Notes: generated by a model from the letters alone, not told the origin. A stretch of DNA of 39,611 nucleotides from an uncultured Planctomycetia bacterium (GCA_964536195.1 CAZHVO010000003.1:1797-41407), one strand, 5' to 3'. Counted from the first letter of the stretch, positions 12,126 to 37,623 are shown. Numbers and translations are program-made.

Positions 12126-12139
12126 GTAAGGAGGAGATT

Positions 12140-12844: not shown

Positions 12845-13109
12845 GATAGAAATAAAGGATTTCCTTTTAAGTGAAGAGGGGAAAATTACTAAAAAGAATA
12901 TTGCTAAGTTGGGGATGTCTTTAGCAGTTATGGCGATAATGTTTAAACCCCAGGCTGCTAGTGCAGCTCATTCTAGCCATGGTAACCACGGTAATGCTTT
13001 TTTTTCTGGCGATAGAGGTGGGCATACTTCAGGAACACCACATGCTTCGCATGGTTCACATGGCTCGCATGGTTCACATGGCTCGCATGGTTCGCATGGA
13101 CAATGGTAA
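12813..13109 (+). CDS. hxsA: His-Xaa-Ser repeat RiPP precursor (HxsA-type)
   Basis: SD ggaggtgg; 51-aa leader, then AHSSHGNHGNAFFSGDRGGHTSGTPHAS(HGS)x5HGQW; lies among HxsD/HxsB/HxsC-like genes. Confidence 0.9.
   Translation: MKKKIRLPKIRIEIKDFLLSEEGKITKKNIAKLGMSLAVMAIMFKPQAASAAHSSHGNHGNAFFSGDRGGHTSGTPHASHGSHGSHGSHGSHGSHGQW
13041..13103 (+). repeat. 9-bp tandem repeat x7 encoding His-x-Ser triplets
   Basis: catgcttcg catggttca catggctcg catggttca catggctcg catggttcg catggacaa; the 18-mer catggttcacatggctcg occurs twice exactly. Confidence 0.95.
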
Positions 13110-15989: not shown

Positions 15990-18800
15990 ATGAATGAAAA
16001 TACATCAAAGACTAGATATCGTGATAAAATCGTTGGTCGAACCGATAGCTTTCCGAATGCAATTTGTTTGGTAAATAAATTCAAAAAGACAATTAAAAGA
16101 CCAGAATTGTTAAGGAAAGTTAAAACAATTTTTTCAACTTCAAGAAAGAATAGCATTGTATGCACGCTAGCTGATTATCGAGCCCTTGTAGATGTATATC
16201 AGCGGAGTCGAAATCGAAAAGCCGAAAAAAGCAGTTCTAAATCTAAAATTCTTCTTTTCAGGAATATTTTTAATTCTTCGGGTAAAGAGAAAAACCAAAG
16301 TTTTAGCTCAGCAACTCTTTATTTGGCTTCTGGCCTAAAGAAGGCAGGTTTTAGAGTCGTTTTTAGCAATTCCAAGATTTCTTTGGAGAACGACGATTTT
16401 ATTACGCAAAAAGAGGAGTTGGAGAAAATTTTGAGAGCGAATTCCGACATAAACATTATCGGTATTTCTCTCTGTGAAGACTTTTTCGAAAAGGCTAAAG
16501 AATTAATTAAATTTCTAAGAAAAAGAACGAAGGCTTTTATCGCAGTGGGTGGTGTAATGCCAACACTAACTCCTGAACATGTTTTTGTTCATTTACCGGA
16601 TGCGAATTTTTTGGTCAGGGGCGCTGGTGAAGAAGTTCTTCCCAAAATGGCTAAAATTTTAGGAGGAAAGAATATTGATTCTTCTTTCGACAAAGGAGAG
16701 GTAGAAAATCTTTTAAAACTTAAAGGCGTTCTTTTTCAGAATAAATTTATTTTTATTTCTGCAGCTTTAGATAAAGTTAATAATATTACAGATTACGACT
16801 GTTCTTTTCTTGATTTCAGTTTCCTGAAGGCGGAAAATATTACTAACGGTCTAATTCTTTTTACTTCCCGAGGATGTTTTAATAATTGTTTTTTTTGCAC
16901 TTCGCCGGGAAAGGGTGAATATGTAGCTAAAAGTTTTAAGAATTTAAAAACAATTATTAAGAACTATAAGCAGAGGCTCAACGAAATTTTTAAGAAAGAT
17001 ATCCCACCTTCTGCTTTACGGATTTCTTTCTATGATGATGATTTTCTCGCCGATACTCAAAGAGCTAAATCTTTTTTCTTGTATCTGAAAAAACAACCAT
17101 TCCGCATAAATTTTTTCCAAACCGGCATAAACTCTTTTTTTGAAAAAGTTGGAAAGAAGTACTCCGGCAAGTTAGACCGGGGACTTCTTAAGAGTTTGGC
17201 TCCGGAAATTTTTGACCCCTCAAAAGAAACAAATATTTATATAGGACTTGAAAATATTTCCGATAGAGAACTTACAAGATTAGGCAAGGGGTACAGCCAT
17301 AAAAAAGCCGAAAAAATAATAAATACATTAGCTCTGAAGAGAATTAAAATCACTTGTCACTTTATAGCTTCAAATCAATTAACTTCTTTAGACAATATTG
17401 TAGAAAATTTATTCAAGTTTTCTGTTTTCCAAGCTCTTTACGGACAATATTTTAAAGTTTTAACTCCAATTATTCCTTACCTTGTGTCTCTTTATCCATC
17501 GGCAAGTTATAAAATTTCTTTAATAAATAAACGAGAAAAATTTATTAATATTCGTCGTAATCTATTAGTGGAAAATTATCCAGAGTATGATTATTCTCTA
17601 GTAGAGAATGATATTCCTATGAGCAAGGCTGTACAAGCCTTGGTTCCTTTACTTTATGATTCATTTTTGGCTAATAAGAATTATTTTAAAATTTTAGATG
17701 AGATGTTATCTAATCTCCTGCTTTTACAAGAAAAAATTCCTTCGGCACAAAAAGAGATATCAAATGTGGTTAGGAAATATAATAATTATTACCTGATGAT
17801 TGATAAAAAGGTATCTCGTATGGTAACCCCCGGCCGGAATAACCTGCAATTAATGATTACTAAGCGATGCCACCTTCGCTGTAAATATTGTCCGATTGTT
17901 AAAAAAAATGAAGACATGAGCGAAGATGTGCTGTATCAAGCAATTAATTTTCTTTTTACCGCTTCCGGAGACACTCTTCGCTTGGATTTTACTGGTGGAG
18001 AGCCGTTGTTAAGATTTGATTTGGTAAAAAAAGGAGTTGAGTACGCTAAAAAATTAGCCCGAAAGAAAAACAAAAATATTTCTTTTTACCTGGTAACAAA
18101 TCTTATTGCGATGGAGGATGATATTGCTGATTTTTTGGCCAGAGAAAATTTTTTCCTGGAATTGTCAGTAGACGGGGAAGAAAAATTCCATAATCTTTAT
18201 AAAATCGGAAGAGACCATAAAATAAACGCTTATCAATCAACAATAACTAAATTGCAGAAAGTATTTTCAAGAAAAATAAATAATTATGCGGTGATGGTAG
18301 TAAATCCAGCCACTGTTAGATATCTGTGGCGTAATTTTTACCATATTATGAAATTAGGATTTAGAAGAATCGGTGTTAATTATGCCCTTTGCTCAACATG
18401 GGAAGCAGATGCCCGAAGGGAATTTTTCCGACAATTTGATTTAATTAAGGAAGCTTTACACCTCCATATTAAAAAAGGGATAGTCAGCTTAACTAATCTA
18501 GAGTCGAGAAACGAACCGGCTATTCTAAATAGTGAAATAATGGTTGACGTTGACGGGAGAGTGCGACTATTGACCGATTACCTTTTTGAAAAAGAAATTA
18601 AAAAGAAACCGCCCTTTTTAGGAGAAATAGGAAACTTTAAGAATATAAATGAAATTTTTTTGACGCAGTTTCGAACTTTATCCCGGTTGTTTCGGTATCA
18701 GGCAACTCCTAAAATAAAAAAGGTTATTCTTAATAATATCGAAATGGGAAATTTGACAAAAATCTATTTTGAAGAATGGAAAAGCAAATTAAAGCAATAA
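15990..18800 (+). CDS. Cobalamin-binding radical SAM domain fused to a group B radical SAM domain
   Basis: LYLASGLKKAG, VGGVMPT, VRGAGEE, TSRGCFNNCFFC, FYDDDF; second domain ITKRCHLRCKYC, FTGGEP, EPAILNSEIMVDVDG. Confidence 0.85.
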   Translation: MNENTSKTRYRDKIVGRTDSFPNAICLVNKFKKTIKRPELLRKVKTIFSTSRKNSIVCTLADYRALVDVYQRSRNRKAEKSSSKSKILLFRNIFNSSGKEKNQSFSSATLYLASGLKKAGFRVVFSNSKISLENDDFITQKEELEKILRANSDINIIGISLCEDFFEKAKELIKFLRKRTKAFIAVGGVMPTLTPEHVFVHLPDANFLVRGAGEEVLPKMAKILGGKNIDSSFDKGEVENLLKLKGVLFQNKFIFISAALDKVNNITDYDCSFLDFSFLKAENITNGLILFTSRGCFNNCFFCTSPGKGEYVAKSFKNLKTIIKNYKQRLNEIFKKDIPPSALRISFYDDDFLADTQRAKSFFLYLKKQPFRINFFQTGINSFFEKVGKKYSGKLDRGLLKSLAPEIFDPSKETNIYIGLENISDRELTRLGKGYSHKKAEKIINTLALKRIKITCHFIASNQLTSLDNIVENLFKFSVFQALYGQYFKVLTPIIPYLVSLYPSASYKISLINKREKFINIRRNLLVENYPEYDYSLVENDIPMSKAVQALVPLLYDSFLANKNYFKILDEMLSNLLLLQEKIPSAQKEISNVVRKYNNYYLMIDKKVSRMVTPGRNNLQLMITKRCHLRCKYCPIVKKNEDMSEDVLYQAINFLFTASGDTLRLDFTGGEPLLRFDLVKKGVEYAKKLARKKNKNISFYLVTNLIAMEDDIADFLARENFFLELSVDGEEKFHNLYKIGRDHKINAYQSTITKLQKVFSRKINNYAVMVVNPATVRYLWRNFYHIMKLGFRRIGVNYALCSTWEADARREFFRQFDLIKEALHLHIKKGIVSLTNLESRNEPAILNSEIMVDVDGRVRLLTDYLFEKEIKKKPPFLGEIGNFKNINEIFLTQFRTLSRLFRYQATPKIKKVILNNIEMGNLTKIYFEEWKSKLKQ

Positions 18801-20011
18801 TTAATTCTTTTATCGATGATTTCGATCAGCAAAAGCTGGTTTTGCTGGAGCATATACTTTTTTCTCTATTGTTGGAGAGAGAAGCGTATTTACTTCAAAG
18901 AAAAAAAAGCACATATACAAAGAAAATAGCAGGAATCCTATCTCGTTATGCTAATTACCGGTATCTAATTTACGAAACAATGTCAAAGAAGAAAAAAGTT
19001 GATAAAAACTTTCTTATGAGAAATATTTATATCTCCCCTCAGCGCCTTATCGTTCTTCTGACTCATAATTGTCAATTACGCTGCGAGTATTGTCGGGTAA
19101 GCAAATTCTCATCTTTCATGAATAAAGAAACTTTATTTAAAGCGATCGATTTACTGTTTACTTCCAATTCACGAGAGCTTCAACTTCAGTTTTTTGGCGG
19201 TGAGCCTCTTCTAAAATTTGATTTGATCAAAAAAGCAGTTATTTATGGAGAAAAAGCTGCTAAACGGCTGGAAAAAGATCTAGTTTTTATCCTTACGACC
19301 AACGGTATTGAGCTGACAAAAGAAAAGGTAGATTTTCTAAAAAAGCACCGGTTTATTATCGAGTATAGCATAGATGGTGAGGTTGAGGCTCAGCTTAAGA
19401 CCAGGATGGCCTCTAACAATAAAAATTATTATTCACATATGATAGATAATTTTGAGTATCTTAAACAGTCAGGCATACGCCACTATTCTATTAGCGTGGT
19501 CATGCCGCATACTGTTTCGCCAATGTTTAGAAACTTTAAGCATTTGGTAGATATTGGGTTTGAGAGTTTACAGATGAATTATTCTTTAGGGTTTTTCTGG
19601 CCCAAGAAGGAGGTAAAAACTCTTTTTCGACAAACAGAGCAAATTCTTAACTATGTTAAGAAACACAGGGATATTCAATTCATTAATTTAACTTCTGCGA
19701 GGAAAGAGCCGGTAGTCCTTAACGCTGAGCTGACGGTAGATTGTGATGGTGGGATATATATGGAATCGGGAATTTGCCTTGAGGAAGATTTTATTGAGAT
19801 GAAAAACAAATTTTTGGTAACCGATCTAGAGAAAGCGGTAAACGTCAATTTGTACGGTTCCACTCCTTTTCAAAATTTTTACCGCTTATCAGAAATTTAT
19901 GGCGCGGCAAACCCCAAATTTAGAGAAATTATTCTAAATAATATTTTCTTGGGAAAAAAATACAACTTATTTTTAAAAAATGAAAAAAGTAAAATTTTCC
20001 ATTCCTTATAA
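18776..20011 (+). CDS. Radical SAM protein (group B) with an N-terminal helical extension
   Basis: LTHNCQLRCEYC, FFGGEP, TTNG, SIDG, EPVVLNAELTVDCDG. Confidence 0.88.
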   Translation: MEKQIKAIINSFIDDFDQQKLVLLEHILFSLLLEREAYLLQRKKSTYTKKIAGILSRYANYRYLIYETMSKKKKVDKNFLMRNIYISPQRLIVLLTHNCQLRCEYCRVSKFSSFMNKETLFKAIDLLFTSNSRELQLQFFGGEPLLKFDLIKKAVIYGEKAAKRLEKDLVFILTTNGIELTKEKVDFLKKHRFIIEYSIDGEVEAQLKTRMASNNKNYYSHMIDNFEYLKQSGIRHYSISVVMPHTVSPMFRNFKHLVDIGFESLQMNYSLGFFWPKKEVKTLFRQTEQILNYVKKHRDIQFINLTSARKEPVVLNAELTVDCDGGIYMESGICLEEDFIEMKNKFLVTDLEKAVNVNLYGSTPFQNFYRLSEIYGAANPKFREIILNNIFLGKKYNLFLKNEKSKIFHSL

Positions 20012-20972
20012 TGGAGATATTGAGTTAATTAAATGGGCGATTAAAAATAAGCAGGTTGAGGAAGTTTATTTTGCTGGTCCGCAAGGGTATGATTTTTCTG
20101 ATCCATACGAGAACGAAAAAAAACATAGCCTTTACGATGTCAGTGCTTTAATGAGGCTTTGTAACAAAAATAAAGTAGATACGAATTTATTAATTAATAA
20201 GAATGTAATGTTTTTTGAGTCTTTGGCGAGGATAAAGAAAAGTATTAATATTTTGCAAAAAGCAGGGAGTTTAGATTATATTACTGTAGCTGATGTTTTT
20301 CTTGCTAAGTGGCTAAAAGAAAATTTTCCTTTAATTAAATTGCAATCGTCTATTTATATGGGGATAAACAATTTTTTGAAGGTAAAAGAAGGTATAAAAG
20401 CAGGCATATCCAAATTTTGTTTAGATCCTTCAATAAACCGTAATGGACAGGAGTTAAGAAAAATTGCCGGTTTAAAAAAGCATTATCCTTTTTTGCGGAT
20501 CAAACTGTTAGGATTGATTATGTGCTATCAGAATTGTTTTTATTCTTTAAGACATAGCGCTTTGCCGATTTTTAGTAGACAAATCAAGAGTAAGGGGGGG
20601 TACTTGGGAGAGCAGTTTGATTGTTATAAATGCCATTATTTGCCATCAGGAATAGTAGATGAGATTAAAAGGCCCTACGTTCGTCCAGAAGATGTTAGCT
20701 ATTACGAAAAAGAAAAGTTGACCGATTCAATAAAGTTGGCTTATCGTAATGAGCCCAGTGCTTCATTGAAGCTAAAAATGATAAGTTACTTTAATCGTAG
20801 TTATAATGGTAACTTATTTGATTTAATGGATTCTATTAATTATGATAATTTATTTTGTGATAATAAAAGGATACCTAAAGATTTCGCTAAAAAGGTTGTG
20901 GAGTGTAATAAAGATTGTTTTTCGTGTGGTTATTGTGAGTTTATCGCTAAAAGATACCTTAAAGCCAGGTGA
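19980..20972 (+). CDS. U32 'peptidase' family Fe-S protein
   Basis: FSIPYN..EEVYFA, ITVAD, LQSS, LDPSINR, CYQNCFY..H, VRPED..YY, IKLAYR; C-terminal CNKDCFSCGYC. Confidence 0.75.
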   Translation: MKKVKFSIPYNGDIELIKWAIKNKQVEEVYFAGPQGYDFSDPYENEKKHSLYDVSALMRLCNKNKVDTNLLINKNVMFFESLARIKKSINILQKAGSLDYITVADVFLAKWLKENFPLIKLQSSIYMGINNFLKVKEGIKAGISKFCLDPSINRNGQELRKIAGLKKHYPFLRIKLLGLIMCYQNCFYSLRHSALPIFSRQIKSKGGYLGEQFDCYKCHYLPSGIVDEIKRPYVRPEDVSYYEKEKLTDSIKLAYRNEPSASLKLKMISYFNRSYNGNLFDLMDSINYDNLFCDNKRIPKDFAKKVVECNKDCFSCGYCEFIAKRYLKAR

Positions 20973-23170
20973 AAATGTCTAAAATTGTTTTGATAAATCC
21001 TGTAAATCTTGACCCCCCGCCTAATTATTTTGGGCCGCCATATGGGTTAAGTCTTATAGCGGCTAATCTTTTAAAATGCAACAAGAAAGTTACCGCTTAT
21101 GACTTTGACTTTCAACCGATGCCGGTAATGCTGCAGGCAATCCCGGAAATACTAAAAAAAGATAAACCTGATTATATAGGTATTGCAACACAAAGTTGTG
21201 CTAGAGGTTCAGTATATCAGATCATTAGGGCAATAAAAAAAAATGATAACAAGGTAAAGATAATATTAGGTGGGCCATTTGCGTCATTGAAATTTGAGTT
21301 GCTTTTGCGCAATTTTGCTGTTGATTTTGTAATAATCGGCGATGGAGAGATAACTTTAAATCAGCTTATTGATTGTATTGACAATAAAGATAACTTGAGT
21401 GATGTGGATGGTATAGCATATATAGGAAGTGGTAAGCTTTGTGTGACTCAGGAAAGAGAAAAAATAAGCAATTTAGATCAATTACTTTACCCTGCTTTTC
21501 ATCTTTTTAAAGACTTTAATGAGAGAATGGCCTTTCCTAAAAATCTTGGCCCTTTGCCAAATTTTTTATTAGGTAAACGGTGTACAACCTTAAAAGATGC
21601 ATTGTTAATGTTGTCTTCCAGAGGGTGTATTTATAGCTGTAACTTTTGTCCAATGAGCAAGATAACTAAGCATAAAATAAGATTTCATAGCCCGGAGTAT
21701 TTTGTAAATATGGTTGAGTATTTTCATGAAAAGTATAGTATTAGTGATTTTGTTTTTGGCGATAATTTCTTTACATTAAGAAAAGAAAGAGTTCTGAAAA
21801 TTTGTGAGTTGATATTACAGAAAAAGCTAAAAATAAAATGGGGTTGTATGACTCGTTCTGATTATGTTGACGAGGAGATGTTGTCGATAATGGCGAAAGC
21901 TGGCTGTTTTGAAATATCTTATGGAGTTGAAAGTGGATCAGTTTTGATTCAGAAAAAAATAGGTAAAAATCTTGATCTAGCTAAAACCAAAGAATCATTT
22001 TTAATGACGGAAAAGTTTGGCATTAGAAGTGTGCTTATGCTTATGATTGGGAATAGTGGAGAAAATGTAAATACGATAAAGCAGACTATGAAATTTGTCC
22101 GCGGAATGAGGCCGGATAGTATTTTGGTTAAAAAAGTAAAGGTGTATCCCGGTACAAAAATTCATGATATTTTTGAACAAAAAGGTTTGATAGATGACAA
22201 TTATTATTTAGGCGATGACTACCATCCGCCTACCTTTACTTTGGCGCATAGCCAAAATAAACTTAATGATTTTTCAGATATGATTAAGTCGAGGAGGGTA
22301 TATATAGACTCTACTAACGTTTCAAACAACAATTCATTGTTTAGTGATTTAGATAGCGGTTTAAGAGATAAAGATCTTGATACCATTAAAAAAGAACTTG
22401 CATTAGCTTTAACTAGGGCAGAACTGGTGGTACTGACCGGAGGCGAGTTTTTTCTGCGTAAAGATTTTTTTGATATTCTGCGATTTGCTATCGACTTAAA
22501 TCTTCATCATCTTTATATAAAAAGCAACGCAAGAATATTTTTATACAATAAGTTTTTAGAAAAATTGATGAATATAGAATGTCTGGAAAAAATTTTAGTT
22601 CCTTTTTACGGCGAAGAGGCTTATCACGATCAAGTTTGCCGGGTTAAAGGAGCTTTTTCCCAAACTGTAAAAGGCATTAAGAATTTAAAATTAAGATTTC
22701 CTTACATCAAAGTCCAGGCACAAATACCAATTTTACTTAATAATTTTGAAAGAATTCAGGATTTAACAGTAATGCTTTCAAATATGGGGGTTGATGAGTT
22801 TCACTATCTATTTGGCCGTAGTTGCGATGGGATTACGAAAGTAAGTCCGAATAATTTACCGCTTATCAGCAAAGCTATGAAGAGTATTGCAACGGCAAGT
22901 AAGTGGTTGGTTAAAAAAAATAAAGAAATATCTTTTGAGGGTGTGCCTTTATGTATAGCCGGAAAGTACAAATACTATTGTTGCGATTTCACGCAGCCCT
23001 TTGACGAGGTAATAACATTTGATAATAAAGTCGTGGGTTGTATTGAATTGAGAAAAAAATATAAGAAAAAGTATTTTTTTTGTAGAAAATGCAAAGAGGG
23101 TGATTTGTGTGAAGGTGTTTGGAGAAATTATGCGAAAATAGCAAAATCTGATGAGCTTAAACCATACTGA
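20969..23170 (+). CDS. B12-dependent radical SAM (class B methyltransferase-like) fused to a degenerate HxsC-like domain
   Basis: IVLINP, PPYGL, ILGGPFAS, IGDGE, SSRGCIYSCNFC, YGVESGS; C-domain SNNNSLFS, LTGGE, VPLC, CRKCKEGDLCEG. Confidence 0.87.
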   Translation: MKMSKIVLINPVNLDPPPNYFGPPYGLSLIAANLLKCNKKVTAYDFDFQPMPVMLQAIPEILKKDKPDYIGIATQSCARGSVYQIIRAIKKNDNKVKIILGGPFASLKFELLLRNFAVDFVIIGDGEITLNQLIDCIDNKDNLSDVDGIAYIGSGKLCVTQEREKISNLDQLLYPAFHLFKDFNERMAFPKNLGPLPNFLLGKRCTTLKDALLMLSSRGCIYSCNFCPMSKITKHKIRFHSPEYFVNMVEYFHEKYSISDFVFGDNFFTLRKERVLKICELILQKKLKIKWGCMTRSDYVDEEMLSIMAKAGCFEISYGVESGSVLIQKKIGKNLDLAKTKESFLMTEKFGIRSVLMLMIGNSGENVNTIKQTMKFVRGMRPDSILVKKVKVYPGTKIHDIFEQKGLIDDNYYLGDDYHPPTFTLAHSQNKLNDFSDMIKSRRVYIDSTNVSNNNSLFSDLDSGLRDKDLDTIKKELALALTRAELVVLTGGEFFLRKDFFDILRFAIDLNLHHLYIKSNARIFLYNKFLEKLMNIECLEKILVPFYGEEAYHDQVCRVKGAFSQTVKGIKNLKLRFPYIKVQAQIPILLNNFERIQDLTVMLSNMGVDEFHYLFGRSCDGITKVSPNNLPLISKAMKSIATASKWLVKKNKEISFEGVPLCIAGKYKYYCCDFTQPFDEVITFDNKVVGCIELRKKYKKKYFFCRKCKEGDLCEGVWRNYAKIAKSDELKPY

Positions 23171-26100
23171 AAATAATAGTGTTGCAAATATGCTGATTTG
23201 TATTACAGCAAAATGCCAATTAGATTGTTCTTATTGCAGTCTTGACCGGGAGGTTCAGGATATTACTGAGTCGATGCTATACGATGCATTGGACTTGTTG
23301 TTTACAGCCAAGAAAGATATCCTGGAGATACAATTTTTTGGCGGTGAACCATTGTTGAGGTTTGATCTTATGGAAAAGGCAGTTAATTATGCAACGGAAA
23401 AAAATCAAAAAATAGGAAAAAATATCAGGTATGTTTTAACTACCAATGGTTTAATCTTGAATGATGAAAATTGCCAGTTTTTAAAACAGCATGATTTTAC
23501 ATTGTTACTAAGTATTGATGGCATGCCAGAAACACAAATTAAGAATAGGCCTTTGAGTTTTTCGGGTAAAACAAATTATTTTGAGTCAATTTCAAAAGCT
23601 TTAGCTTTTCTTAAAGTTTTCAAAATCGATTATTTTGTCAATATGGTTTTTATGCCTGATGATGTAAAAAAGATGACTGAAAACGTAGAATACCTTATCG
23701 ATTTGGGCGTGAAGGATATACAACTAGCTTATGCGGTTGGACAGTATTTTAGTGATAATAATATTTTTAGATCTGTGGATGAATTTACTAAAATAGCTCA
23801 GTTGGCTAAGGAGAGAAAAGTACGTTTTCGTAATTTAGACAATGATAATGAACCGATATTGTTTTCTCCACAAGTAGTCGTGAGTCCTTTGGGTAAAGTT
23901 TATGTTGGGTGTGCGTTGGTTTTAGAAAAGAAATTTAAAGAATTCAATGATATTTTTTATTACGATCAGTTAAATAATGGGTTAACCTTTGAAGATGTTT
24001 GCCGGACAAATTCTGAGCAGTTTGCCTTGCTTGAGAAAAATAGGGATAAAATAGATAAAGCTTTATTTAGCAATTTATCTTTGGGTGTCGCTTTGGATAT
24101 CTTTGCTAAACATTATCGCATAAGCAAAGATAAGGGCTTAAATATGTACGAGGCCCAGAGTAATTATCTATACCATGATAAACTTATGCTAATGCTTACC
24201 CATAAATGCCAGATGTGTTGTCGTTATTGCTATCTTGATTTTACTCATCCCGACATCAAAGAAGAGGTAATTTATAAGGCTATAGATGTTTTGTTTTTTT
24301 CACAGAAGAAGGATAGTGTCGAGATACAATTTTTTGGCGGTGAACCTTTGCTGAGATTTGACCTTATGAAAAAGACCATAAATTATGCAGAGAAAAAATG
24401 TGTAGAGGCCGGGAAAAAAGTAAAGTATCTCTTAGCTACTAATGGAATTGGGTTAGGTGCTAAGGAATTGGAATATTTGTCTAATTATCAGGTTGGTTTT
24501 ATTCTTAGCATTGACGGTAAAAGCCGTACTCAAAGATATAATCGACCGTTATTAAACAAGAAGAAAAATTATCCTTTTATTCGATTTACGCGGGTTATCA
24601 ATAACTTGGTAGGCCAAAAACGGGATTTCTTTATTAATCTTGTTGTTGGTCCCAAAAATGTAAATGCTTTAGTTGACAATGCTTTGTTTTTTTTAAAGTT
24701 GGGCGTAAAGAATATAAGACTATCTTATGAACTTGGAGTTTTTTGGGAAAAAAAATATATCATCCGATATTGTATCGCTTCATTTAAGATTATGTGGGAG
24801 TGGATAAAACATGGTGATAATAATTTAATAAATTTACATGTTGATGATGAGCCTTCTCTTATATCTCCGGTGCTTACAGTTGATTACGAGGGAAGTGTTT
24901 ATAGTGGGTGTACAATAACTTTAGAGAAGTTATTTCCGGCTTTTCGAAAAATTAATTATATTGACAATATATGTAATGTTAAAAGAATGGAAGATATGAG
25001 TCGAACCAGGAAAGAAGTAGTGAGTAAAATGTGGAGTTTATCTGAAAAACGTGAGTTGGTGTTTAATAATCTTATGGTCGGTAAACTTGCCGAGCAGCAT
25101 TTCCATAAATTTAACGTGGAAGAAAAGAAAGACGTCGACTCAGACTTGCCTAAATATAAGGTAAGCGGGCTAATGCTAATGTGTACTTATCAGTGCCAAT
25201 TAAAATGTGGATATTGCGAGATAGAACAATGTGATAAGTCAATGAAGCAGAAGGTAGTTGAGGATGCTATTGATTTGCTGTTGACCACTAAGGGCAAAGA
25301 GTGTTTGTTGAGATTTTGGGGCGGAGAGCCTTTGCTTGAATGGGAACTTATTAAAAAAGGGATTAAGGCCGGAATTAAGAAAGCCAAAATAAAAAACAAA
25401 AAGCTAAAATTTTCCATTACTACTAATGGATTACTGTTGGATGAAGAGAAACTTGATTTTTTAAAAAAGAATTCAGTGGAAATAATGTTCTCTATGGATG
25501 GAGATGAATTAGCAAATAAAACTTTTAGGCTAAAAGGGGTTAATGAAAAACTTTATACTGAGTTGGAGAATAACTTAAAGCTTTTAGCTAATTCAGGTAT
25601 CGCCCATTTTGTTAATTTAGTGGTTTTTCCGGATAACGTAGAACACTTGGCTAAAAATATCAGTTTTATCAAACGATTAGGAGTTCAGCGGATACAGATT
25701 GGTTATCAGAATGCTGTATTTTGGGGTGCAGATAAGGTTAAGGCGATGCAAGATCAAATAAGAAAGTTTTTTGAGGCAAATGGAGGAGAAGAGCTATTGA
25801 TGAATTTCGTTAATGATTGTGAACCGACAATGCTTAGTAATGAAATATTGGTGGATGTGGACGGAAAACTTTATTTGGACGGAGCTGTTTTCATGGAAAA
25901 AGATTTTCCTGCCCTGCGAAAGCAATATTTTTTAGGTGATCTTAAGGCTATTAAGCGTGTTGATGACCTGTATTTAACTAAAAAAGATGTATTCAATAAA
26001 TTCAAAAAAGCATGTAATGCTAGGCAGCGTAAGCTATTAGATAATAATATTGATCTTGGTCTGGAAATGGAATATTTTTACAATGATTTTTCTTCTCGTT

Positions 26101-27032
26101 CTTTTCAATCTAACGAGCATCCGGTTTTGATTCCCGTTCTAAAAAGTGATGTTGAAGCTCAACAGAAGACTTTGAAAAAGATAGGCATAAACTCTTCATT
26201 TTTATATCTAAATGGCCCCTGTAGAAACAATTGCATATTTTGTCTTAATAAAGAAGAGGAGCGCTATTCTGATCCTTTTAAAAGTGAACGCTTGATTGAG
26301 AAGAATAAGGATTTGAAGAATAATAAATTATGTATTGTCGGAAATGACCCTCTCCTGCATCCTGATATCATTACTATTGTAGAATTAGCCAGAGGATTCA
26401 ATTTTAAAGAGATAGAAATCATGACTTCAGGAGAAGTATTGGCTAATGAGGGTTTTACTAAAAAGTTGATTAATTCCGGTGTTAGTTCATTTTCTCTTCC
26501 TTTATATTCTGATATAGCCCAAATCCATGATTTTATAGTAGGAGTTAAAGGTAGCTATCCGAAGGTTTTGAAGGGCGTAGAAAATGTTTTATCTAATAGA
26601 GGGAGGGTGTTTGTTCATTCTAATTTGTTGAAGCAGAATATTGACGGTCTAAAAAAATTAGAAGGGTTTGTGAAAAATATTTTAGGTTTGCCGTTTGTTA
26701 TTTTGCCGGTTAGACCTAAAAGTTCTAATTTGTTATACAAAGATTTAGTGCCTTCTTATAGGGATATTGTAATGAAGTTAAAAGGGGTAAATTCTTTGAT
26801 GGCTTTTCCCCTATGCGTTGTTAAGCAGGTTCAGAAGAATATTTTTAAAGATGAAAGCGAGATAGCCGATTCGATGAAATTATATGTTTTAGACCAAAAG
26901 TTTGTTAAACCGCAAAAGTGCCGCCGGTGTGCGGATCGCCTTAAATGTGTGGGGATTTTTAAAGAGCATGGCCAGATGTATGGAGTTGGAGCTTTGAAGC
27001 CTTTTATTAGAAATGGCAAGAAAATCAGTTAA
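23151..27032 (+). CDS. Four-domain radical SAM protein (B-B-B-A)
   Basis: CQLDCSYC (aa 22), CQMCCRYC (aa 353), CQLKCGYC (aa 682), CRNNCIFC (aa 1024) in one open frame. Confidence 0.88.
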   Translation: MSLNHTENNSVANMLICITAKCQLDCSYCSLDREVQDITESMLYDALDLLFTAKKDILEIQFFGGEPLLRFDLMEKAVNYATEKNQKIGKNIRYVLTTNGLILNDENCQFLKQHDFTLLLSIDGMPETQIKNRPLSFSGKTNYFESISKALAFLKVFKIDYFVNMVFMPDDVKKMTENVEYLIDLGVKDIQLAYAVGQYFSDNNIFRSVDEFTKIAQLAKERKVRFRNLDNDNEPILFSPQVVVSPLGKVYVGCALVLEKKFKEFNDIFYYDQLNNGLTFEDVCRTNSEQFALLEKNRDKIDKALFSNLSLGVALDIFAKHYRISKDKGLNMYEAQSNYLYHDKLMLMLTHKCQMCCRYCYLDFTHPDIKEEVIYKAIDVLFFSQKKDSVEIQFFGGEPLLRFDLMKKTINYAEKKCVEAGKKVKYLLATNGIGLGAKELEYLSNYQVGFILSIDGKSRTQRYNRPLLNKKKNYPFIRFTRVINNLVGQKRDFFINLVVGPKNVNALVDNALFFLKLGVKNIRLSYELGVFWEKKYIIRYCIASFKIMWEWIKHGDNNLINLHVDDEPSLISPVLTVDYEGSVYSGCTITLEKLFPAFRKINYIDNICNVKRMEDMSRTRKEVVSKMWSLSEKRELVFNNLMVGKLAEQHFHKFNVEEKKDVDSDLPKYKVSGLMLMCTYQCQLKCGYCEIEQCDKSMKQKVVEDAIDLLLTTKGKECLLRFWGGEPLLEWELIKKGIKAGIKKAKIKNKKLKFSITTNGLLLDEEKLDFLKKNSVEIMFSMDGDELANKTFRLKGVNEKLYTELENNLKLLANSGIAHFVNLVVFPDNVEHLAKNISFIKRLGVQRIQIGYQNAVFWGADKVKAMQDQIRKFFEANGGEELLMNFVNDCEPTMLSNEILVDVDGKLYLDGAVFMEKDFPALRKQYFLGDLKAIKRVDDLYLTKKDVFNKFKKACNARQRKLLDNNIDLGLEMEYFYNDFSSRSFQSNEHPVLIPVLKSDVEAQQKTLKKIGINSSFLYLNGPCRNNCIFCLNKEEERYSDPFKSERLIEKNKDLKNNKLCIVGNDPLLHPDIITIVELARGFNFKEIEIMTSGEVLANEGFTKKLINSGVSSFSLPLYSDIAQIHDFIVGVKGSYPKVLKGVENVLSNRGRVFVHSNLLKQNIDGLKKLEGFVKNILGLPFVILPVRPKSSNLLYKDLVPSYRDIVMKLKGVNSLMAFPLCVVKQVQKNIFKDESEIADSMKLYVLDQKFVKPQKCRRCADRLKCVGIFKEHGQMYGVGALKPFIRNGKKIS

Positions 27033-28125
27033 TACCCAGCAATTATTAAAAAGATTAGCAGAGTTGGGCATCAAGGATCCTTTAAGTAGTAATACTTTGG
27101 GAGAAGTGTACTTAATGTTATCTCTGCGTTGCAATTTACGATGTAAGGTATGTTCTTGGTGGGGGGCAAAAGGCCCTTGCAGGGATAGAGGGTTTATGGA
27201 TAAATATGCTTCATCGTTGACCTTGAAAGAGCTTAAACCTTTCATGGAAGATATTATAAGCTTTTCTCCGAAAACAATTACTTTTTCTGGAGGAGAACCG
27301 CTTATGTATAAAAAATGGTATGTTTTGGCCGATTATTTTAAGGCAAGGGGAGTCAAAGTGTCTTTAACCACAAACGGTGTATTTTTTCTAAATAATTTCG
27401 ATAAATTGGTTAATGTTGTAGACGAGATAAACCTTTCATTAGGCGGCCCCCCTTCTATACTGAATCTTATCCGAGACAATCGCCCCAGCCATTTTAATAA
27501 GATACTGCAGGGGTTGAAAAAAATAAGTGATTTTAAGCGAAACAACCGCAATAAGCCTTTGTTAGGGATACTTTATACTATTTCAGATATAAGCTATGGC
27601 TATATGTCGGAACTTATAGAATTTTTACAAGATAACCGTATTCCAATTGACCGGTATTGTTTTCAACATTTGATGTTTATCGGCCCGGATACATTTAAGG
27701 CTCAGCAAAGAATATTTAAAAATAAGTTCGGGATTACATCTTTAGATTTGTGGCAGGGATATACTTATCTCCCCAAGAAAATAGATTTTAAAAAATTCAG
27801 AGATGAGATAAAAAAAGTAAAAAAAATGGCAAATGTAAGATTCAGCCCTGATTTTCGTCTTCACGAAATAGAAGACTATTATAAATGTAATAGAGGGGCA
27901 TTACATTATGCCGATTACTGTACCGCTCCTTGGCATCAGATAGATATGATGCCTAACGGAGATGTCTATACCTGTCATGATTATTTTATCGGTAATATAA
28001 AAAATTCGTCATTTAAGGATATATGGAACGGACAAAAAGCAAAGAATTTAAGAAAATATCTTTTGAATAAATTGTTTCCCGGGTGTAAGGGGTGTTTTTA
28101 TCATTATTGCGATAGGGTAGATTAG
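27013..28125 (+). CDS. Radical SAM protein with SPASM/twitch domain
   Basis: CNLRCKVC, FSGGEP, CTAPW..MPNGDVYTC..IGNI..FKDIWNG..CKGC. Confidence 0.88.
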   Translation: MARKSVNTQQLLKRLAELGIKDPLSSNTLGEVYLMLSLRCNLRCKVCSWWGAKGPCRDRGFMDKYASSLTLKELKPFMEDIISFSPKTITFSGGEPLMYKKWYVLADYFKARGVKVSLTTNGVFFLNNFDKLVNVVDEINLSLGGPPSILNLIRDNRPSHFNKILQGLKKISDFKRNNRNKPLLGILYTISDISYGYMSELIEFLQDNRIPIDRYCFQHLMFIGPDTFKAQQRIFKNKFGITSLDLWQGYTYLPKKIDFKKFRDEIKKVKKMANVRFSPDFRLHEIEDYYKCNRGALHYADYCTAPWHQIDMMPNGDVYTCHDYFIGNIKNSSFKDIWNGQKAKNLRKYLLNKLFPGCKGCFYHYCDRVD

Positions 28126-28202: not shown

Positions 28203-28697
28203 GTGATGAGAGCAACGAAAGCAAAAAAGGAAAGCGGTAAATCAGGGAAAAAAGGCAAAAGTAGAAAAGGAGCCCTCTATGCTCCAAAATCCTCAACAGT
28301 AGTCGCTGGAAGATTTATTGATAGTGGAGATGGTACAATAACCGATTTGAAGACAAGGTTAATGTGGGCTAAAGAAAGTAATAGTATTGGTTGCTATTGC
28401 GGCAAGAAAATGACATGGAACGATGCTGTTAAATATGCAAAGTCTCTATCGTCTGCAGGATATTCTGATTGGCGCCTTCCGGAAATAGAAGAATTAATAA
28501 GCATTGTAGATTATTCAAAACTTGACCCTGCCATTCACGAGGTTTTCCTGAGTACACCTAATGGCTATTTTTGGACAAGTACTGTTTTTAAAAGTGATAC
28601 CAGAGGCGTCTGGGTAGTAGGCTTTGATACCGGAAGAGTCAATGGCGATGACAAGAGCGAATTTTTTTATCTTAGATGTGTTCGTAATATAAAATAG
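28203..28697 (+). CDS. DUF1566 (Lcl C-terminal-like) domain protein with a Lys-rich N-terminus
   Basis: RFIDSGDGTITDLKTRLMW, TWNDA, GYSDWRLPEIEEL, FWTST, LRCVR. Confidence 0.85.
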   Translation: MMRATKAKKESGKSGKKGKSRKGALYAPKSSTVVAGRFIDSGDGTITDLKTRLMWAKESNSIGCYCGKKMTWNDAVKYAKSLSSAGYSDWRLPEIEELISIVDYSKLDPAIHEVFLSTPNGYFWTSTVFKSDTRGVWVVGFDTGRVNGDDKSEFFYLRCVRNIK

Positions 28698-28714
28698 CGA
28701 GAGTATTTAAAGAG

Positions 28715-29134
28715 ATGGCTATTAATCGTCGCGTAGGGAAGTTCGCTTTCTGCTGTCCTCACTGTCGGGTTATAGCAGAAGATTTAAGATATTGCCCCTT
28801 ATGTGGTAGAAAACTGTTTGTGGTTAAAGAAGGCTATTATGCTAGTCTCTTAGGAGATACCGTAATAAAAACTGACTTTCCTGAACAGAAAAAACCTTCT
28901 CATCTGGGAGATTTTCCTTGGATAAGTATATGTGTTTGTTCTAAGTGTAAATACACGGTTCATGCGGGAGAGGTTTGTCCTGTAGATGGTACAAAGCTAA
29001 AAAAGAAGATAGTTAAAATAGCTTACGCTTGCAAAAGAGACAGAATCGCTTTTTCTACTAAGACAACGTGTCCTCTTTGTAAAATTCCCACCATAAAAAT
29101 TGAGGACGTTCATACTGTTAAATTTGCCATTTAA
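28715..29134 (+). CDS. Small protein with three Cys-knuckle (zinc-ribbon/heavy-metal-binding-like) units
   Basis: CPHC..CPLCG, CSKC..CPVDG, CKRD..CPLC. Confidence 0.65.
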   Translation: MAINRRVGKFAFCCPHCRVIAEDLRYCPLCGRKLFVVKEGYYASLLGDTVIKTDFPEQKKPSHLGDFPWISICVCSKCKYTVHAGEVCPVDGTKLKKKIVKIAYACKRDRIAFSTKTTCPLCKIPTIKIEDVHTVKFAI

Positions 29135-29219: not shown

Positions 29220-30149
29220 ATGGAGCGGCTTGAATTTCATATCTCATACAAATGTTATAACAATTGTTGTTTTTGCAGTGAAAGCGGCCAATTAAGTAAA
29301 TTCAGAGATTTATTTGTTTCCCGAGAGAAGATTATTGCTAATCTGGAAAATTTTGCCAAAAAAGGCTTTAAACATATTACTTTTACCGGAGGCGAGCCGA
29401 CCTATCATCCTCATTGTATTGAGATTCTGAAATTAGCCAAAAAATTAGGATATAAAACTTATCTGACAACTAACGGTGGACTGTTCTCGCTAAAGAAGTT
29501 TACCCAAAAAGCTTTGCCCTATCTTGATGAAGTTTGTTTTTCACTTCACGGCCACACTGCAAAGCTCCATAATTTTCATACTCGTAACAAAAAAAGTTTT
29601 AGTAAACTGGCCAAAGCCTTAGCAAACATAGAAGAGGCAAAGGAAAATACTTTTGGGTTTGCTAATATTGTAATAACTAAATATAATTTCGATTTTTTAA
29701 TTGAGATTATCGATTTCATTAGTCGCTACAAGAAGATAAAACAGGTTCTTGTTTCCAATTTTGCTCCTGAAGGTAACGGGTTATCCAATTTTAATGAATT
29801 AGTTGTACCTTTATTCCGAATTAAAGAAAAGGTTGGCGCGATCGTCGATAAGGCAGAGAGTCAATCTATAGTGGCAAGATTTTTTGGAGTACCGCTTTGT
29901 GCATTAAATGGTTATTGGAATTATTCTAACGATGCTTATTGGTCATCGCGTACGACCATTGAACAATGGAAAACGAATAAAAAGATATTTCTAAAGAAAA
30001 CTTTAAGCTATAAACCGGTTCGGGGAAGAGTTAAAACTCTCAAGTGCCGGCAATGTTTAAAAAAAGATATTTGTGGAGGACTTTTTAAAAAATATTATCA
30101 TGAATTCGGTGATTATGAATTAATGCCGTTTTCAAGAGAGGTAGAATGA
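29220..30149 (+). CDS. Radical SAM protein, HxsC-like (group A)
   Basis: CYNNCCFC, FTGGEPT, VPLC, CRQCLKKDICGG. Confidence 0.88.
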   Translation: MERLEFHISYKCYNNCCFCSESGQLSKFRDLFVSREKIIANLENFAKKGFKHITFTGGEPTYHPHCIEILKLAKKLGYKTYLTTNGGLFSLKKFTQKALPYLDEVCFSLHGHTAKLHNFHTRNKKSFSKLAKALANIEEAKENTFGFANIVITKYNFDFLIEIIDFISRYKKIKQVLVSNFAPEGNGLSNFNELVVPLFRIKEKVGAIVDKAESQSIVARFFGVPLCALNGYWNYSNDAYWSSRTTIEQWKTNKKIFLKKTLSYKPVRGRVKTLKCRQCLKKDICGGLFKKYYHEFGDYELMPFSREVE

Positions 30150-32239
30150 ATAATAATCAAAGAGATTTGACAGCACAGGTTAAGAAAAAATGGGTTAGGC
30201 TAACTCGGGTGTGCAATAACCGCTGTCTATTCTGCTTGGACAAGAATGCACAGAATGGTAGTCATTTATCCCTAGCTGAGATAAAAAAAGTTTTTCAAGC
30301 CGGGCGTAAAGAAAAGGCAGAAAAAGTTATTTTAAGCGGCGGCGAACCTACTTTGCACCCGAAATTTATTGATATTGTAAAAAAAGCTAAAAAACTGGGC
30401 TATACTAAGATTCAGGTTATTACCAATGGCAGGATGTTTGCTTATAAGAAATTTTTAGATCAGGCAATAAATGCTGGTGTTGGTGAGGTGACTTTTTCTA
30501 TACATGGACATAATCAGAGATTACATGATAAACAAACCGGAGTAAAGGGGTCTTTTTTCCAAACTTTGGCCGGTTTAGCGGCTGCTTTACAGACTCAGGG
30601 GCTTATAGTAAATGTAGATATTGTGATTAACAAAATCAACATACGCTATCTGAAAGACATTATAGAGTTTTATATTAATTCAGGCGTTTTAGAGTTTGAT
30701 CTCCTGCAAGTTATGCCTTTTGGCCGAGCCTGGGACAATAGAGAGGTTCTTTTTTACGACATTGAAGAGTCACTTCCATTTTTAAATGAGGCTTTCCAAT
30801 TATCCAGGGACCCCAATCTACATATTTGGACCAATCGGTTTCCGCCGGAATACCTTGAGGGTTTTGAAGATTTAATTCAACATCCAGTTAAGCTATATGA
30901 CGAAGTAGGCGGACGTCGTGACATGTTTGATAGATTCCTTAATAATGGAAAAAAAATGGATTGTAAAGGCAAGAAATGCTCATATTGTTTTTTGGAAAAC
31001 TTTTGTAAAGATGTGATACTGCTAAAAGAAAAAGGTGAATTGACCTCACACGTTCTCCCTTTTTGTTTAAAAGAGGCGAAAGAGACCCGCGATGTAAAGA
31101 TGCAGTGTAAATATACATTGAGTAAAGACAACAGGGGTATTTTTAAGTTCCTTTCTTTTTATATTCAGCATAGATATTTTATAAAGGGGCTAAGGTGCAA
31201 AAAGTGTAAATTTAATGATCGCTGCACAGGAATGCAATGTGATTATATCCGTAATCATGGATTCCAGGTTTTGAAGCCGATTCTGGACAAGAGAACAAAA
31301 TATAAACAAACTGTTTTGCAAAAAAACATTCCCTACAGGCTTCTTCGGTTAAATTTAGCCTGCAATGCTAATTGTCTATTTTGTAATGTGCCGCCGGAGT
31401 CTTATCCGTTGCAAGAAATGTCGACTCAGCAAGCTAAATCCGAAATTGATCGTCTTATTGCTTTAGATAAAGAATTAAGATTGGATATTACCGGTGGTGA
31501 ACCTACTTTAAGGGGCGATTTAGAAGAGTTAATCGAATATGCATCTAAAAAAGGAGCAAAGGTAATTGAAATTCAGACCAATGGTATTTTATTGGCTAAT
31601 AAAGAGTACGTAAAAAAATTAAAATTAGCGGGCCTTGGTAAAGCATTCTTGGCTCTTCATTCTTGTTATCCTGAGATTCACGATTTTCTTGTCGGCAGAA
31701 AGGGTGCTTTTGAAAAATGTGTTACTGGTATTAAAAACTTATTGAAAGCCGGCGTTGAAGTCATTCTGAATCCGGTAATTACTGTTAAGAATTATGAATG
31801 TTTACCGGATTATATAAAATTTATCAAAAACAATTTTCCCCGGATAAAATCCGTATCTCTTTCGGTTGTTCAGCCGCGAGGCCGCGCAGGAAATAATAAA
31901 TATTTAATACCCCGTTACAAGGTAATTTCCTCTCATATAAGAAAAGCATTGACACTGGCTAAAAAATATGGATTGATTATCTATAATCCCTATTGTGGAG
32001 TGCCATTATGTATAGGGGGATGGCATCGCTACCCGGAGCAGTGTGTGGAATATTGCGAGAATCTTTTGAAGTCAAAAAGCGGTTTCGGAGAAGATGATTT
32101 TAATGCCGATAAGGTGAAAAGTCCCGACTGTTGCAAGTGCGATTTAAATAATTTTTGCAATGGCGTATGGAAAGAGTATGCCGCGATTTATTCTTTTTCT
32201 GATTTAAAGCCGGTCAGGCTGAAAAAGCAAGCTATCTAG
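30146..32239 (+). CDS. Tandem two-domain HxsC-like radical SAM protein (A-A)
   Basis: CNNRCLFC/LSGGEPT/LPFC/CKKCKFNDRCTG and CNANCLFC/ITGGEPT/VPLC/CCKCDLNNFCNG. Confidence 0.88.
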   Translation: MNNNQRDLTAQVKKKWVRLTRVCNNRCLFCLDKNAQNGSHLSLAEIKKVFQAGRKEKAEKVILSGGEPTLHPKFIDIVKKAKKLGYTKIQVITNGRMFAYKKFLDQAINAGVGEVTFSIHGHNQRLHDKQTGVKGSFFQTLAGLAAALQTQGLIVNVDIVINKINIRYLKDIIEFYINSGVLEFDLLQVMPFGRAWDNREVLFYDIEESLPFLNEAFQLSRDPNLHIWTNRFPPEYLEGFEDLIQHPVKLYDEVGGRRDMFDRFLNNGKKMDCKGKKCSYCFLENFCKDVILLKEKGELTSHVLPFCLKEAKETRDVKMQCKYTLSKDNRGIFKFLSFYIQHRYFIKGLRCKKCKFNDRCTGMQCDYIRNHGFQVLKPILDKRTKYKQTVLQKNIPYRLLRLNLACNANCLFCNVPPESYPLQEMSTQQAKSEIDRLIALDKELRLDITGGEPTLRGDLEELIEYASKKGAKVIEIQTNGILLANKEYVKKLKLAGLGKAFLALHSCYPEIHDFLVGRKGAFEKCVTGIKNLLKAGVEVILNPVITVKNYECLPDYIKFIKNNFPRIKSVSLSVVQPRGRAGNNKYLIPRYKVISSHIRKALTLAKKYGLIIYNPYCGVPLCIGGWHRYPEQCVEYCENLLKSKSGFGEDDFNADKVKSPDCCKCDLNNFCNGVWKEYAAIYSFSDLKPVRLKKQAI

Positions 32240-32390
32240 ACTATGCCGGGAGTTAAAAGGAAGAATTTATATTAGAACCAGCGGCTATCACAATAACCCT
32301 GGCCCTTAACCGAAGGGTAACCCTGATAAGCAACAAAGTAAAAAAAGTTAGATTTTAACAAAGGACAGTAACTATTTAAAAGTAGTAATA

Positions 32391-34330: not shown

Positions 34331-34331
34331 A

Positions 34332-37352: not shown

Positions 37353-37428
37353 CGGGGCGTAGCGTAGCTCGGCTTAACGCGTCTGCTTTGGGAGCAGAAG
37401 ATCGGTGGTTCAAATCCACTCGCCCCGA
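37353..37428 (+). tRNA. tRNA-Pro(TGG)
   Basis: CGGGGCG acceptor, TCTGC-TTTGGGA-GCAGA anticodon arm, GGTTCAAATCC T-arm; no encoded CCA. Confidence 0.95.
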
Positions 37429-37589: not shown

Positions 37590-37623
37590 GTATTTTGTAG
37601 GTTTTAAGTTATTTTGGTAATAT

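Follow-up and report, generated by a model that had tools for sequence, protein, structure and literature searches.

A single polypeptide with four tandem radical SAM domains in an expanded Hxs-type gene cluster of an uncultured Planctomycetia bacterium

Radical S-adenosylmethionine (SAM) enzymes almost always have one catalytic domain. Two are joined in the FO synthase FbiC, a fusion of CofG and CofH, which are separate proteins in some organisms; according to the passages on this enzyme in PMC11917521, its two domains both act on one product. A second point of reference is the four-gene HXS system of E. coli, HxsD-HxsB-HxsC-HxsA, which blocks the entry of phage DNA and in which HxsA is processed at its N-terminus and changed by +8 Da in its last HxS repeat, two events that both require HxsB and HxsC (Li et al. 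2026, PMC13128918). The pull-down passages of the same paper report that HxsC binds HxsD and describe no stable HxsB–HxsC complex; its survey places 99.7% of HXS systems in Pseudomonadota and gives four proteins for more than 99.8% of them. The underlying families, TIGR03976–03979, were defined by Haft and Basu in 2011, as cited in PMC9062424. Here we describe a stretch of 39,611 bases from an uncultured Planctomycetia bacterium (G+C 35.6%, 0 N), which was analysed as a whole and is called the window below. It contains an open reading frame (ORF) for a 1293-aa protein (P0001) with four tandem radical SAM domains, and this ORF lies in a cluster that, by its gene content, is an enlarged version of an Hxs-type maturation system in which radical SAM domains are fused into multi-domain chains.

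Like the canonical HXS systems, the window has HxsD, an HxsB with a SPASM domain, an HxS-repeat target with an N-terminal segment for export or processing, and a partner of the HxsC type. Unlike the four-gene systems, the cluster extends over ~25 kb and has 14 radical SAM genes with 19 intact domains, some of them in multi-domain fusions, and two B12-binding domains. Its putative target is an HxsA4 peptide of 98 aa, compared with a 214-aa protein with a peptidoglycan-binding domain in HXS, and the window lacks a protein at the HxsC cut-off. With regard to the 'rare' Hxs variants of NCBIfam, the precursor is a member of HxsA4 (NF038313), while the C-type proteins described below stay under the cut-off of HxsC4 (NF038332); our literature search found no papers using the names HxsA4 or HxsC4. 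FbiC differs from the 1293-aa protein in having two domains, not four, in its small-molecule substrate, and in belonging to an unrelated subfamily.

The ORF extends from 23151 to 27032 on the plus strand, starts with ATG, and remains open for 1293 codons with 0 internal stops; a stop-free run of this length has a probability of ~1e-45 at this base composition. The order of its domains is B1-B2-B3-C, with CxxxCxxC motifs starting at aa 22, 353, 682 and 1024 (nt 23214, 24207, 25194 and 26220). Domain 1 (B1, 23151–24155) also carries GGEP at aa 64 and has a SPASM-like fold without the cluster cysteines. GGEP is likewise present in domain 2 (B2, 24156–25145) and domain 3 (B3, 25146–26150). Domain 4 (C, 26151–27032) has an HxsC-like core with GNDP and a C-terminal Cx2Cx5C. 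The Pfam analysis of the entire protein showed four Radical_SAM stretches (E 2.1e-52), and when domains 1 to 4 were scanned singly against PF04055 they scored 57.4, 40.4, 53.4 and 48.8 bits, all above the gathering cut-off of 29.5.

Structures were modelled with AlphaFold2 from 14-row alignments and compared by VIA-align with PDB chains ranked by Foldseek. The model of domains 1 and 2 (665 aa) reached a predicted local distance difference test score (pLDDT) of 86.0 and a predicted template modelling score (pTM) of 0.88, and that of domains 3 and 4 (628 aa) a mean pLDDT of 85.6 and a pTM of 0.81. Domain 1 (model range 10–327) was closest to anSME (4k36_B; Z 25.4, root-mean-square deviation 3.4, 302 residues aligned), domain 2 (338–659) to ChlB (9gmc_A; Z 24.2, 3.8, 301 residues), and domain 3 (3–321) to CteB (5why_B; Z 27.7, 3.1, 298 residues). 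Domain 4 (338–589) was nearest to GDGT-MAS (7tom, Z 17.5), followed by NifB (6y1x_A, Z 16.8) and the pyruvate formate-lyase-activating enzyme (Z 15.1). Domains 1–3 thus align with SPASM maturases of the CteB, ChlB, anSME and PapB kind over ~300 residues, the SPASM region included, at Z 24–28; unlike those enzymes, they have neither the auxiliary-cluster cysteines nor an N-terminal recognition domain.

When the radical SAM proteins encoded in the window were all compared by local BLAST, two types of modules emerged. The B type, which resembles HxsB and PapB, comprises domains 1–3, a 317-aa gene, a 411-aa gene, and the C-terminal half of a 936-aa gene. The HxsC-like C type comprises domain 4, seven C-type genes with one or two modules each, and the C-terminal half of a 733-aa gene. 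The best sequence family for domains 1–3 is the PapB model (NF047865, cut-off 340), which they do not reach singly (124.9, 127.4 and 135.9 bits over profile positions 1 to ~214 of 330); the entire protein scores 373.7 bits on it, a sum of three partial matches and not a sign of membership. The best stretch of the HxsC model (TIGR03977) covers residues 1012–1177, inside domain 4, with 136.1 bits for the protein against a cut-off of 267.9, and HxsC4 falls outside the 25 best families found for this protein.

Homologues in the 14-row alignments keep the cysteines of CxxxCxxC without exception or to at least 90%, and the SAM motifs, GGEPLL in domains 1–3 and GNDP in domain 4, are likewise invariant or almost invariant. 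Domain 4 has four further cysteines (1222, 1257, 1260 and 1266) that are invariant across the 14 sequences, the last three forming the Cx2Cx5C motif, and these C-terminal cysteines could hold one auxiliary cluster. This motif was found in 11 of 11 C-type modules and in 0 of 6 B-type modules. Domains 1–3 have just two or three cysteines downstream of the radical SAM motif, and neither Cx2Cx5C nor the SPASM/twitch ligands of auxiliary Fe-S clusters (Cx2Cx5Cx3C and partners) were found in them. Because so few cysteines remain, their auxiliary clusters have been lost. On the strength of motifs and models, the four active sites of the chain are nevertheless predicted to be catalytically equipped.

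The integrity of the ORF was examined in assembled contigs of public sequencing runs, all of them lake-water metagenomes from 2018–2019. In run X1, a possible source of the window, one 25.6-kb contig contains positions 22900–27300 with 0 differences. A second contig, 4044 nt long and from run X4, for which no source flag is set, covers 24081–27300, again with 0 differences, and therefore bridges the junctions between domains 1 and 2 (~24156), 2 and 3 (~25146), and 3 and 4 (~26151). No indels over the ORF region were listed in the four runs compared; the contigs of runs X5 and X6 leave parts of the stretch uncovered and carry no weight either way. The linker between domains 2 and 3 consists of ~20 aa in frame with no read-through stop, and the SNEHP linker between domains 3 and 4 is kept in all homologues. 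The same four-domain order is present in P0003 (1309 aa; 60% identity, 100% coverage) and P0010 (1287 aa; 37% identity, 99% coverage), as well as in P0028 (1231 aa) from a library of representatives at 50% identity, all from other assemblies. An earlier sequence-only reading had described the ORF in these terms: one polypeptide with four tandem radical SAM domains, motifs at the four nucleotide positions given above with no stop between them, three domains of one type, and an HxsC-like domain at the end. The open frame, the four separate Pfam matches, the four (and not fewer) modelled radical SAM folds, the contigs across the junctions, and the relatives with the same architecture all agree with it.

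The candidate substrate is encoded 10 kb upstream of the ORF. A gene for an HxsA4-type precursor of 98 aa lies at 12813–13109 on the plus strand (NF038313, 71.1 bits; cut-off 55). It had been overlooked in what looks like a 274-bp intergenic gap upstream of 13119; its first 32 nt lie within the end of the preceding ORF, and a strong ribosome-binding site, GGAGGTG, stands before it at 12802–12808. The precursor consists of a leader with FLLSEEGKITKKN, a hydrophobic stretch, and then eight HxS units, ending in SHGQW; three HGx units accompany the eight HxS units. Its C-terminal half is HSSHGNHGNAFFSGDRGGHTSGTPHASHGSHGSHGSHGSHGSHGQW, and it terminates in SHGSHGSHGSHGSHGQW. The genome has one copy of this gene. 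Upstream of it, on the same strand, are HxsD (10059–10472; TIGR03976, 66.1 bits, cut-off 50), an HxsD-like small protein (10438–10662; NF038315, 73.3 bits, cut-off 41), HxsB, a radical SAM protein with a full SPASM domain (10653–12125; TIGR03978, 502.3 bits, cut-off 370), and a Cys-rich protein of 250 aa that has a hydrophobic stretch at its N-terminus and no family (12092–12844). A complex prediction of domain 4 with HxsD gave a score of 0.00, which speaks neither for nor against binding. The 2023 version of PADLOC, which has no HXS model, reported only generic viperin-like radical SAM matches. Directly upstream of HxsD, positions 9538–10038 encode an apparently secreted protein of 166 aa, which has a signal peptide, a C-terminal Cys pair, and no family.

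HxsA4-like peptides were also seen at four related loci (L010, L012, L013, L015). When the genomes of 10 further loci were searched with the HxsA4 model, nine gave a match at E<=0.01 and six a match above the cut-off, compared with 0 of 14 control genomes above the cut-off. In a sample of 301 genomes of the phylum, 10 have an HxsA4-like match (E<=0.001), including all four that have a P0001 match, on the same contig in each case. The order HxsD-(HxsD-like)-HxsB-HxsA4-[B+C didomain] is repeated in four loci (L108–L111) labelled Elusimicrobiota, Myxococcota, and a 'Rickettsiales' metagenome-assembled genome (MAG). Common to the HxsA4 relatives are FLxSEEGKIxKxN in the leader, a hydrophobic segment, and an (SHG)n array, and most of them end in SHGQW. 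From this neighbourhood and co-occurrence, the HxsA4 peptide is most likely the substrate of the cluster, in keeping with the repetitive substrate that the sequence-only reading had expected.

We propose that the radical SAM modules would work together in the cytoplasm as a single multi-enzyme machine, in which each active site would generate a 5'-deoxyadenosyl radical and carry out a distinct step, or hydrogen abstraction, on every His-Gly-Ser unit, and the machine would move along the repeat array iteratively. Since the fused domains lack an N-terminal recognition domain (their motifs lie ~20 residues into each domain), the leader would be recognised in trans; HxsD, the HxsD-like protein, and the N-terminal extension of the 411-aa neighbour are candidates for this. 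The fusion would fix the stoichiometry and hold the substrate among the active sites, and the product would then be exported via the hydrophobic segment. By analogy with HXS, the role of the product could be antiphage; it could also be a peptide-derived cofactor or a metal binder.

A single-protein scan of genome contigs gave no matches; relatives were collected by an alignment-based scan of species-representative genomes, which gave 524 confirmed matches; the best 80 were kept and 17 top loci were dissected. In 10 of these loci (L010–L015, L018, L022, L027, L041), with hosts labelled Omnitrophota, 'Spirochaetes' MAGs, Elusimicrobiota, and one archaeon, the B3-C pair corresponding to domains 3 and 4 forms one ORF of 619–705 aa. 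Among the dissected loci this pair is fused in every good related locus, and domains 1 and 2 are split off in at least one genome. The persistence of the fusion argues that the B-type and HxsC-like domains work together, as the sequence-only reading had supposed. Other arrangements were C-B3-C in one ORF (L017, L020, L021), B1-B3-C (P0005, P0006, P0009, P0011, P0012, P0016), B2-B3-C (P0007), U32-C-B3-C (P0013), B1-B3-C-SPASM (P0014), C-B1-B2 (P0015), and C-B12-B (P0017, P0018). A further one was a 3065-aa ORF in a 'Rickettsiales' MAG (L019, 3536–12733) with five Pfam Radical_SAM stretches, namely a B12-type, C, B3, C and one more, in which ~1100 N-terminal residues have no assigned family.

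Another 142 representatives, taken from the top 150 of a profile-free search, contained one module in 79 cases, two in 47, three in 11, and four in five. Four intact motifs are present in three of these five: P0028 (B-B-B3-C), P0040 (B12-C-B3-C, 1951 aa), and P0055 (B-C-C-C). In the phylum sample a strong P0001 match was found in 4 of 301 genomes, including the window's own, and the other three do not have all four domains fused. Longer fused relatives of 2264–5000 aa were not found, and this is weak evidence because the 3065-aa ORF of L019 exists. Our literature search on multi-domain radical SAM fusions, Omnitrophota radical SAM proteins, and HxsA4, HxsC4 or SHG repeats found no description of this architecture, although supplements may hold gene maps (e.g., Figure S6 of Méheust et al.). 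Judging from these protein sets, four domains per chain are rare but recurrent, not unique, and appear to have arisen in several different orders.

Suites of radical SAM genes have been described in another setting. In groundwater Elusimicrobia, up to 13 such genes stand beside group VI nitrogenase paralogues, and group VI NifH homologues also occur in Gracilibacteria and Myxococcales (Méheust et al. 2020, 10.1101/765248). The pertinent entry of a 2026 review still lists the group VI clusters as 'unknown cofactor synthesis' (PMC13474568). We found that the suites of Elusimicrobia and Myxococcales contain homologous B-, C- and B12-type modules and the same B3-C didomain (L018, L022, L023, L027), L023 being from one of the genomes named by Méheust et al. 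They have NifD/K-like genes after the suite on the same contig, whereas the window's genome does not. The nitrogenase component-1 family PF00148 was present in all five genomes of L017, L018, L020, L022 and L027 (Elusimicrobiota, Myxococcota, and one unclassified 'bacterium' MAG) and in three of the four genomes of L023, L024, L026 and L028. It was found in none of the five genomes of L010 and L012–L015 (Omnitrophota and 'Spirochaetes' MAGs), and the window's genome gave 0 matches at 91.7% completeness, so that the cluster does not count as group VI by its NifH/D/K neighbours.

Hxs genes and nitrogenase-like genes stand together in two loci. In L112 (G316:C15:46000-65999; the genome of L024), one strand encodes HxsD, HxsB, a 93-aa HxsA4 ending in SHGSHGSHGSHGQW, and a B-type gene, followed by four C-type genes, a 741-aa NifD/K-like gene, three C-type genes, and a conserved membrane protein. 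In L113 (G315:C70:43000-62999; the genome of L023), HxsD-like, HxsB, HxsA4 and NifD/K-like genes share one 20-kb stretch. A 1133-aa protein (P0031) even joins B3-C to a nitrogenase component-1 domain (PF00148, 60.8 bits). The position of HxsB and HxsA4 beside NifD/K-like genes in L112 and L113 suggests a peptide substrate rather than a tetrapyrrole, i.e., that the group VI paralogues may act on an HxsA4-derived peptide; no paper stating this was found in a search that did not extend to supplements. The cited passages of Méheust et al. propose a tetrapyrrole and do not mention an HxS peptide (10.1101/765248). We tentatively consider a wider possibility, to which we give somewhat less than even weight: a factory for a peptide-derived polymer or cofactor in several phyla, in which ~15–20 radical SAM sites would rebuild every His-Gly-Ser unit into a new, heavily cross-linked or heterocyclic one, joined in Elusimicrobiota and Myxococcota by the group VI nitrogenase-like reductase. 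The 'unknown cofactor' clusters would then act on HxsA4 and not on a tetrapyrrole, and the repeated independent fusions, with up to five radical SAM domains per chain, would mark a physical mega-complex.

Several other explanations have to be set against that of a four-domain enzyme acting on HxsA4. The ORF could be an artefact in which a misassembly, or a missed stop or frameshift, has joined at least two adjacent genes. The same four domains do occur on two adjacent genes, B1-B2 and B3-C, in L012, where the B1-B2 gene (678 aa) ends 1 nt before the B3-C gene, and in G248. In L016 (660–3485), B1-B3 and C are in different frames, on a 3.5-kb contig with 2.7x coverage, probably as the result of a sequencing frameshift or in a decayed copy. 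Nevertheless, each of the three junctions is bridged without a single difference in a run that carries no source flag, three relatives from other assemblies repeat the order, and both linkers are in place, which makes an artefact extremely improbable, even with contigs in the place of reads. It is less far-fetched, though still unlikely, that some of the domains are non-catalytic scaffolds or peptide-binding modules. This would concern above all domains 1–3, which have none of the SPASM cluster ligands, and pseudo-domains do exist in the cluster, as the C-type domain of the 733-aa neighbour has no CxxxCxxC. A mere scaffold, however, would not be expected to keep CxxxCxxC and GGEPLL (nearly) invariant in its homologues.

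Two further alternatives concern what the domains act on. The sequence-only reading had imagined an assembly-line-like or processive enzyme, and in the strict form of the assembly-line idea each radical SAM domain would modify one particular His-Xaa-Ser unit. The 19 intact domains of the window could be set against the eight HxS and three HGx units of the precursor, and fused domains suggest action in order. The number of HxS units in the HxsA4 relatives, however, ranges from six to 35, a more than five-fold spread, with a similar set of enzymes, which argues for iterative processing of each unit by the same several steps and against one domain per repeat; B1, B2 and B3 are, besides, old and distinct orthologous groups, which fits different chemistries rather than positions. 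We therefore regard this form of the assembly line as improbable. Equally improbable in our view is a cluster that acts on no peptide and builds or tailors a lipid or a small-molecule cofactor such as a tetrapyrrole. Tetrapyrrole reduction was proposed from gene context (10.1101/765248) and is repeated in the corresponding part of PMC13474568, the cluster has two B12-binding radical SAM domains, and domain 4 is structurally nearest to GDGT-MAS and NifB. On the other side, HxsA4, HxsB and HxsD head the operon in the window and in its relatives, including the operons of Elusimicrobia with nitrogenase paralogues, domains 1–3 are nearest to the peptide-modifying CteB, ChlB and anSME, and the window's genome, at 91.7% completeness, has no PF00148 match.

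We therefore think it likely that the ORF truly specifies one chain whose four radical SAM domains are all equipped for catalysis, an enzyme of an expanded Hxs system with an HxsA4 substrate. Several observations weigh against this. The junctions were examined in assembled contigs and not in raw reads, and because all runs are lake-water metagenomes of the same two years, they possibly sampled one population; public RNA runs do not contain the stretch. Domains 1–3 are without the auxiliary clusters used by related peptide maturases, and their chemistry may therefore differ or be absent. The substrate is named from gene neighbourhood and co-occurrence only, and of the 10 phylum genomes that gave an HxsA4-like match, six have no P0001 match at E<=1e-40. 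For the related group VI suites, the gene context led Méheust et al. to tetrapyrrole reduction instead of a peptide. Finally, no protein of the window reaches the HxsC cut-off of 267.9 (TIGR03977), the best being a two-domain 697-aa protein with 215.9 bits, and for HxsC4 (NF038332, cut-off 500) the C-type proteins all fall short, the neighbours scoring 64.5–231.5 bits with the same 697-aa protein at the top. A canonical HxsC is therefore missing from the window; HxsC4 is the best or second-best family for these C-type neighbours.

The origin of the domains was examined through a 26-bp string that occurs at 23325 and at 24321 and is expected 0.00 times (100 shuffles). It corresponds to eight identical codons within the EIQFFGGEP SAM-binding motif, inside a stretch of 16 identical residues. 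Where domains 1 and 2 have identical residues, they share the codon in 59% of cases, which gives ~0.015 for a run of eight (0.59^8). The two domains are 37–39% identical as proteins and 52% identical as DNA; protein identity is 27% between domains 1 and 3 and 32% between domains 2 and 3. We rejected both a recent duplication and gene conversion as the origin of the string, as domains 1 and 2 are otherwise divergent, and attribute the identity to a conserved motif together with codon bias. In a quick maximum-likelihood tree of 64 B-type modules, HxsB cores included, B1, B2 and B3 of the window fall into separate clades with counterparts from other genomes (Shimodaira–Hasegawa-like approximate likelihood ratio test (SH-aLRT) 98, 98 and 97), and B1 and B2 are sister groups in a clade of 17 rows (SH-aLRT 99). 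Domains 1–3 are therefore long-standing, distinct paralogues: the internal duplication that the sequence-only reading had seen in the 26-bp match stands as an old event, and the match itself is no sign of a recent one. In P0003, the closest relative with four domains, residues 25–124 and 360–459 form an exact repeat of 100 residues between domains 1 and 2 while the remainder of the domains differs, which may reflect either intragenic gene conversion or assembly collapse.

A protein that unites four radical SAM domains, from an operon that encodes 19 of them, is an extreme case among these enzymes and may serve as a 'Rosetta stone' for which radical SAM proteins cooperate. The B3-C fusion offers genetic support for joint action of HxsB-type and HxsC-type proteins, which was not seen in the E. 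coli pull-downs. The locus joins three threads, i.e., the four-gene HXS antiphage system, the uncharacterised HxsA4 family of NCBI, and the radical SAM suites linked to group VI, and names a concrete candidate substrate, the 98-aa His-Gly-Ser repeat peptide. From HxsD to the last radical SAM gene, the cluster occupies 25.2 kb with ~20 genes, or ~2% of a 1.17-Mb genome (91.7% complete), and its product is therefore probably important to the cell.

The 14 radical SAM genes downstream of the precursor all lie on the plus strand and mostly overlap or nearly touch. They contain 20 Pfam Radical_SAM stretches, 19 of which have CxxxCxxC, and two of the genes have B12-binding domains; the genome-wide search with P0001 gave 13 matches, all on this contig. 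The series begins with three single-domain genes, one of B type (13119–14072) and two of C type (14059–14949 and 15037–15957). At 15990–20011 follow a 936-aa fusion of a B12-binding radical SAM domain with a B-type module and then a 411-aa B-type protein that is extended at its N-terminus. The 330-aa product of 19980–20972 is weakly similar to peptidase U32 (17.3 bits, below the cut-off), and P0013 has a homologue of it joined to radical SAM domains in one chain. The 733-aa protein at 20969–23170 joins a B12-binding radical SAM domain to a C-type domain (22268–23170) that has kept Cx2Cx5C, lacks CxxxCxxC, and scores 26.5 bits alone, below 29.5; this half is likely a pseudo-enzyme, and the counterpart in L012 has a second CxxxCxxC, at aa 456.

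Downstream of the four-domain ORF, the plus strand encodes a radical SAM/SPASM protein of 370 aa (27013–28125), whose homologue is fused to B1-B3-C in P0014. Next, at 28203–29134, come a 164-aa Lcl_C/DUF1566 protein and a zinc-ribbon-like, Cys-rich protein of 139 aa, and then six C-type domains in five genes at 29220–35219, whose products are 309, 697 (with two domains), 339, 310 and 295 aa long. A gene for a PQQ-type beta-propeller also belongs to the cluster. The polytopic membrane protein encoded at 35225–36181, on the same strand, has no Pfam family even at E<=5 and is kept at the end of related clusters (L010, L012–L015, L107, L112). It contains GAGDAKL, which resembles the active-site motif of prepilin-type aspartic peptidases, and may be a leader peptidase.

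The cluster was not found in the two other species of the genus or in five genomes of the family within the phylum sample. Its G+C content is 0.32–0.36, compared with 0.37–0.41 in the flanks. It is flanked by tRNA genes (6926–7107, 37353–37700 and 39062–39135), for Ser and Leu upstream and for Pro, Arg and His downstream, and by smpB (8149–8607). As far as sequence can tell, the tRNA and smpB flanks, the lower G+C content, and the absence from close relatives fit an acquired island.

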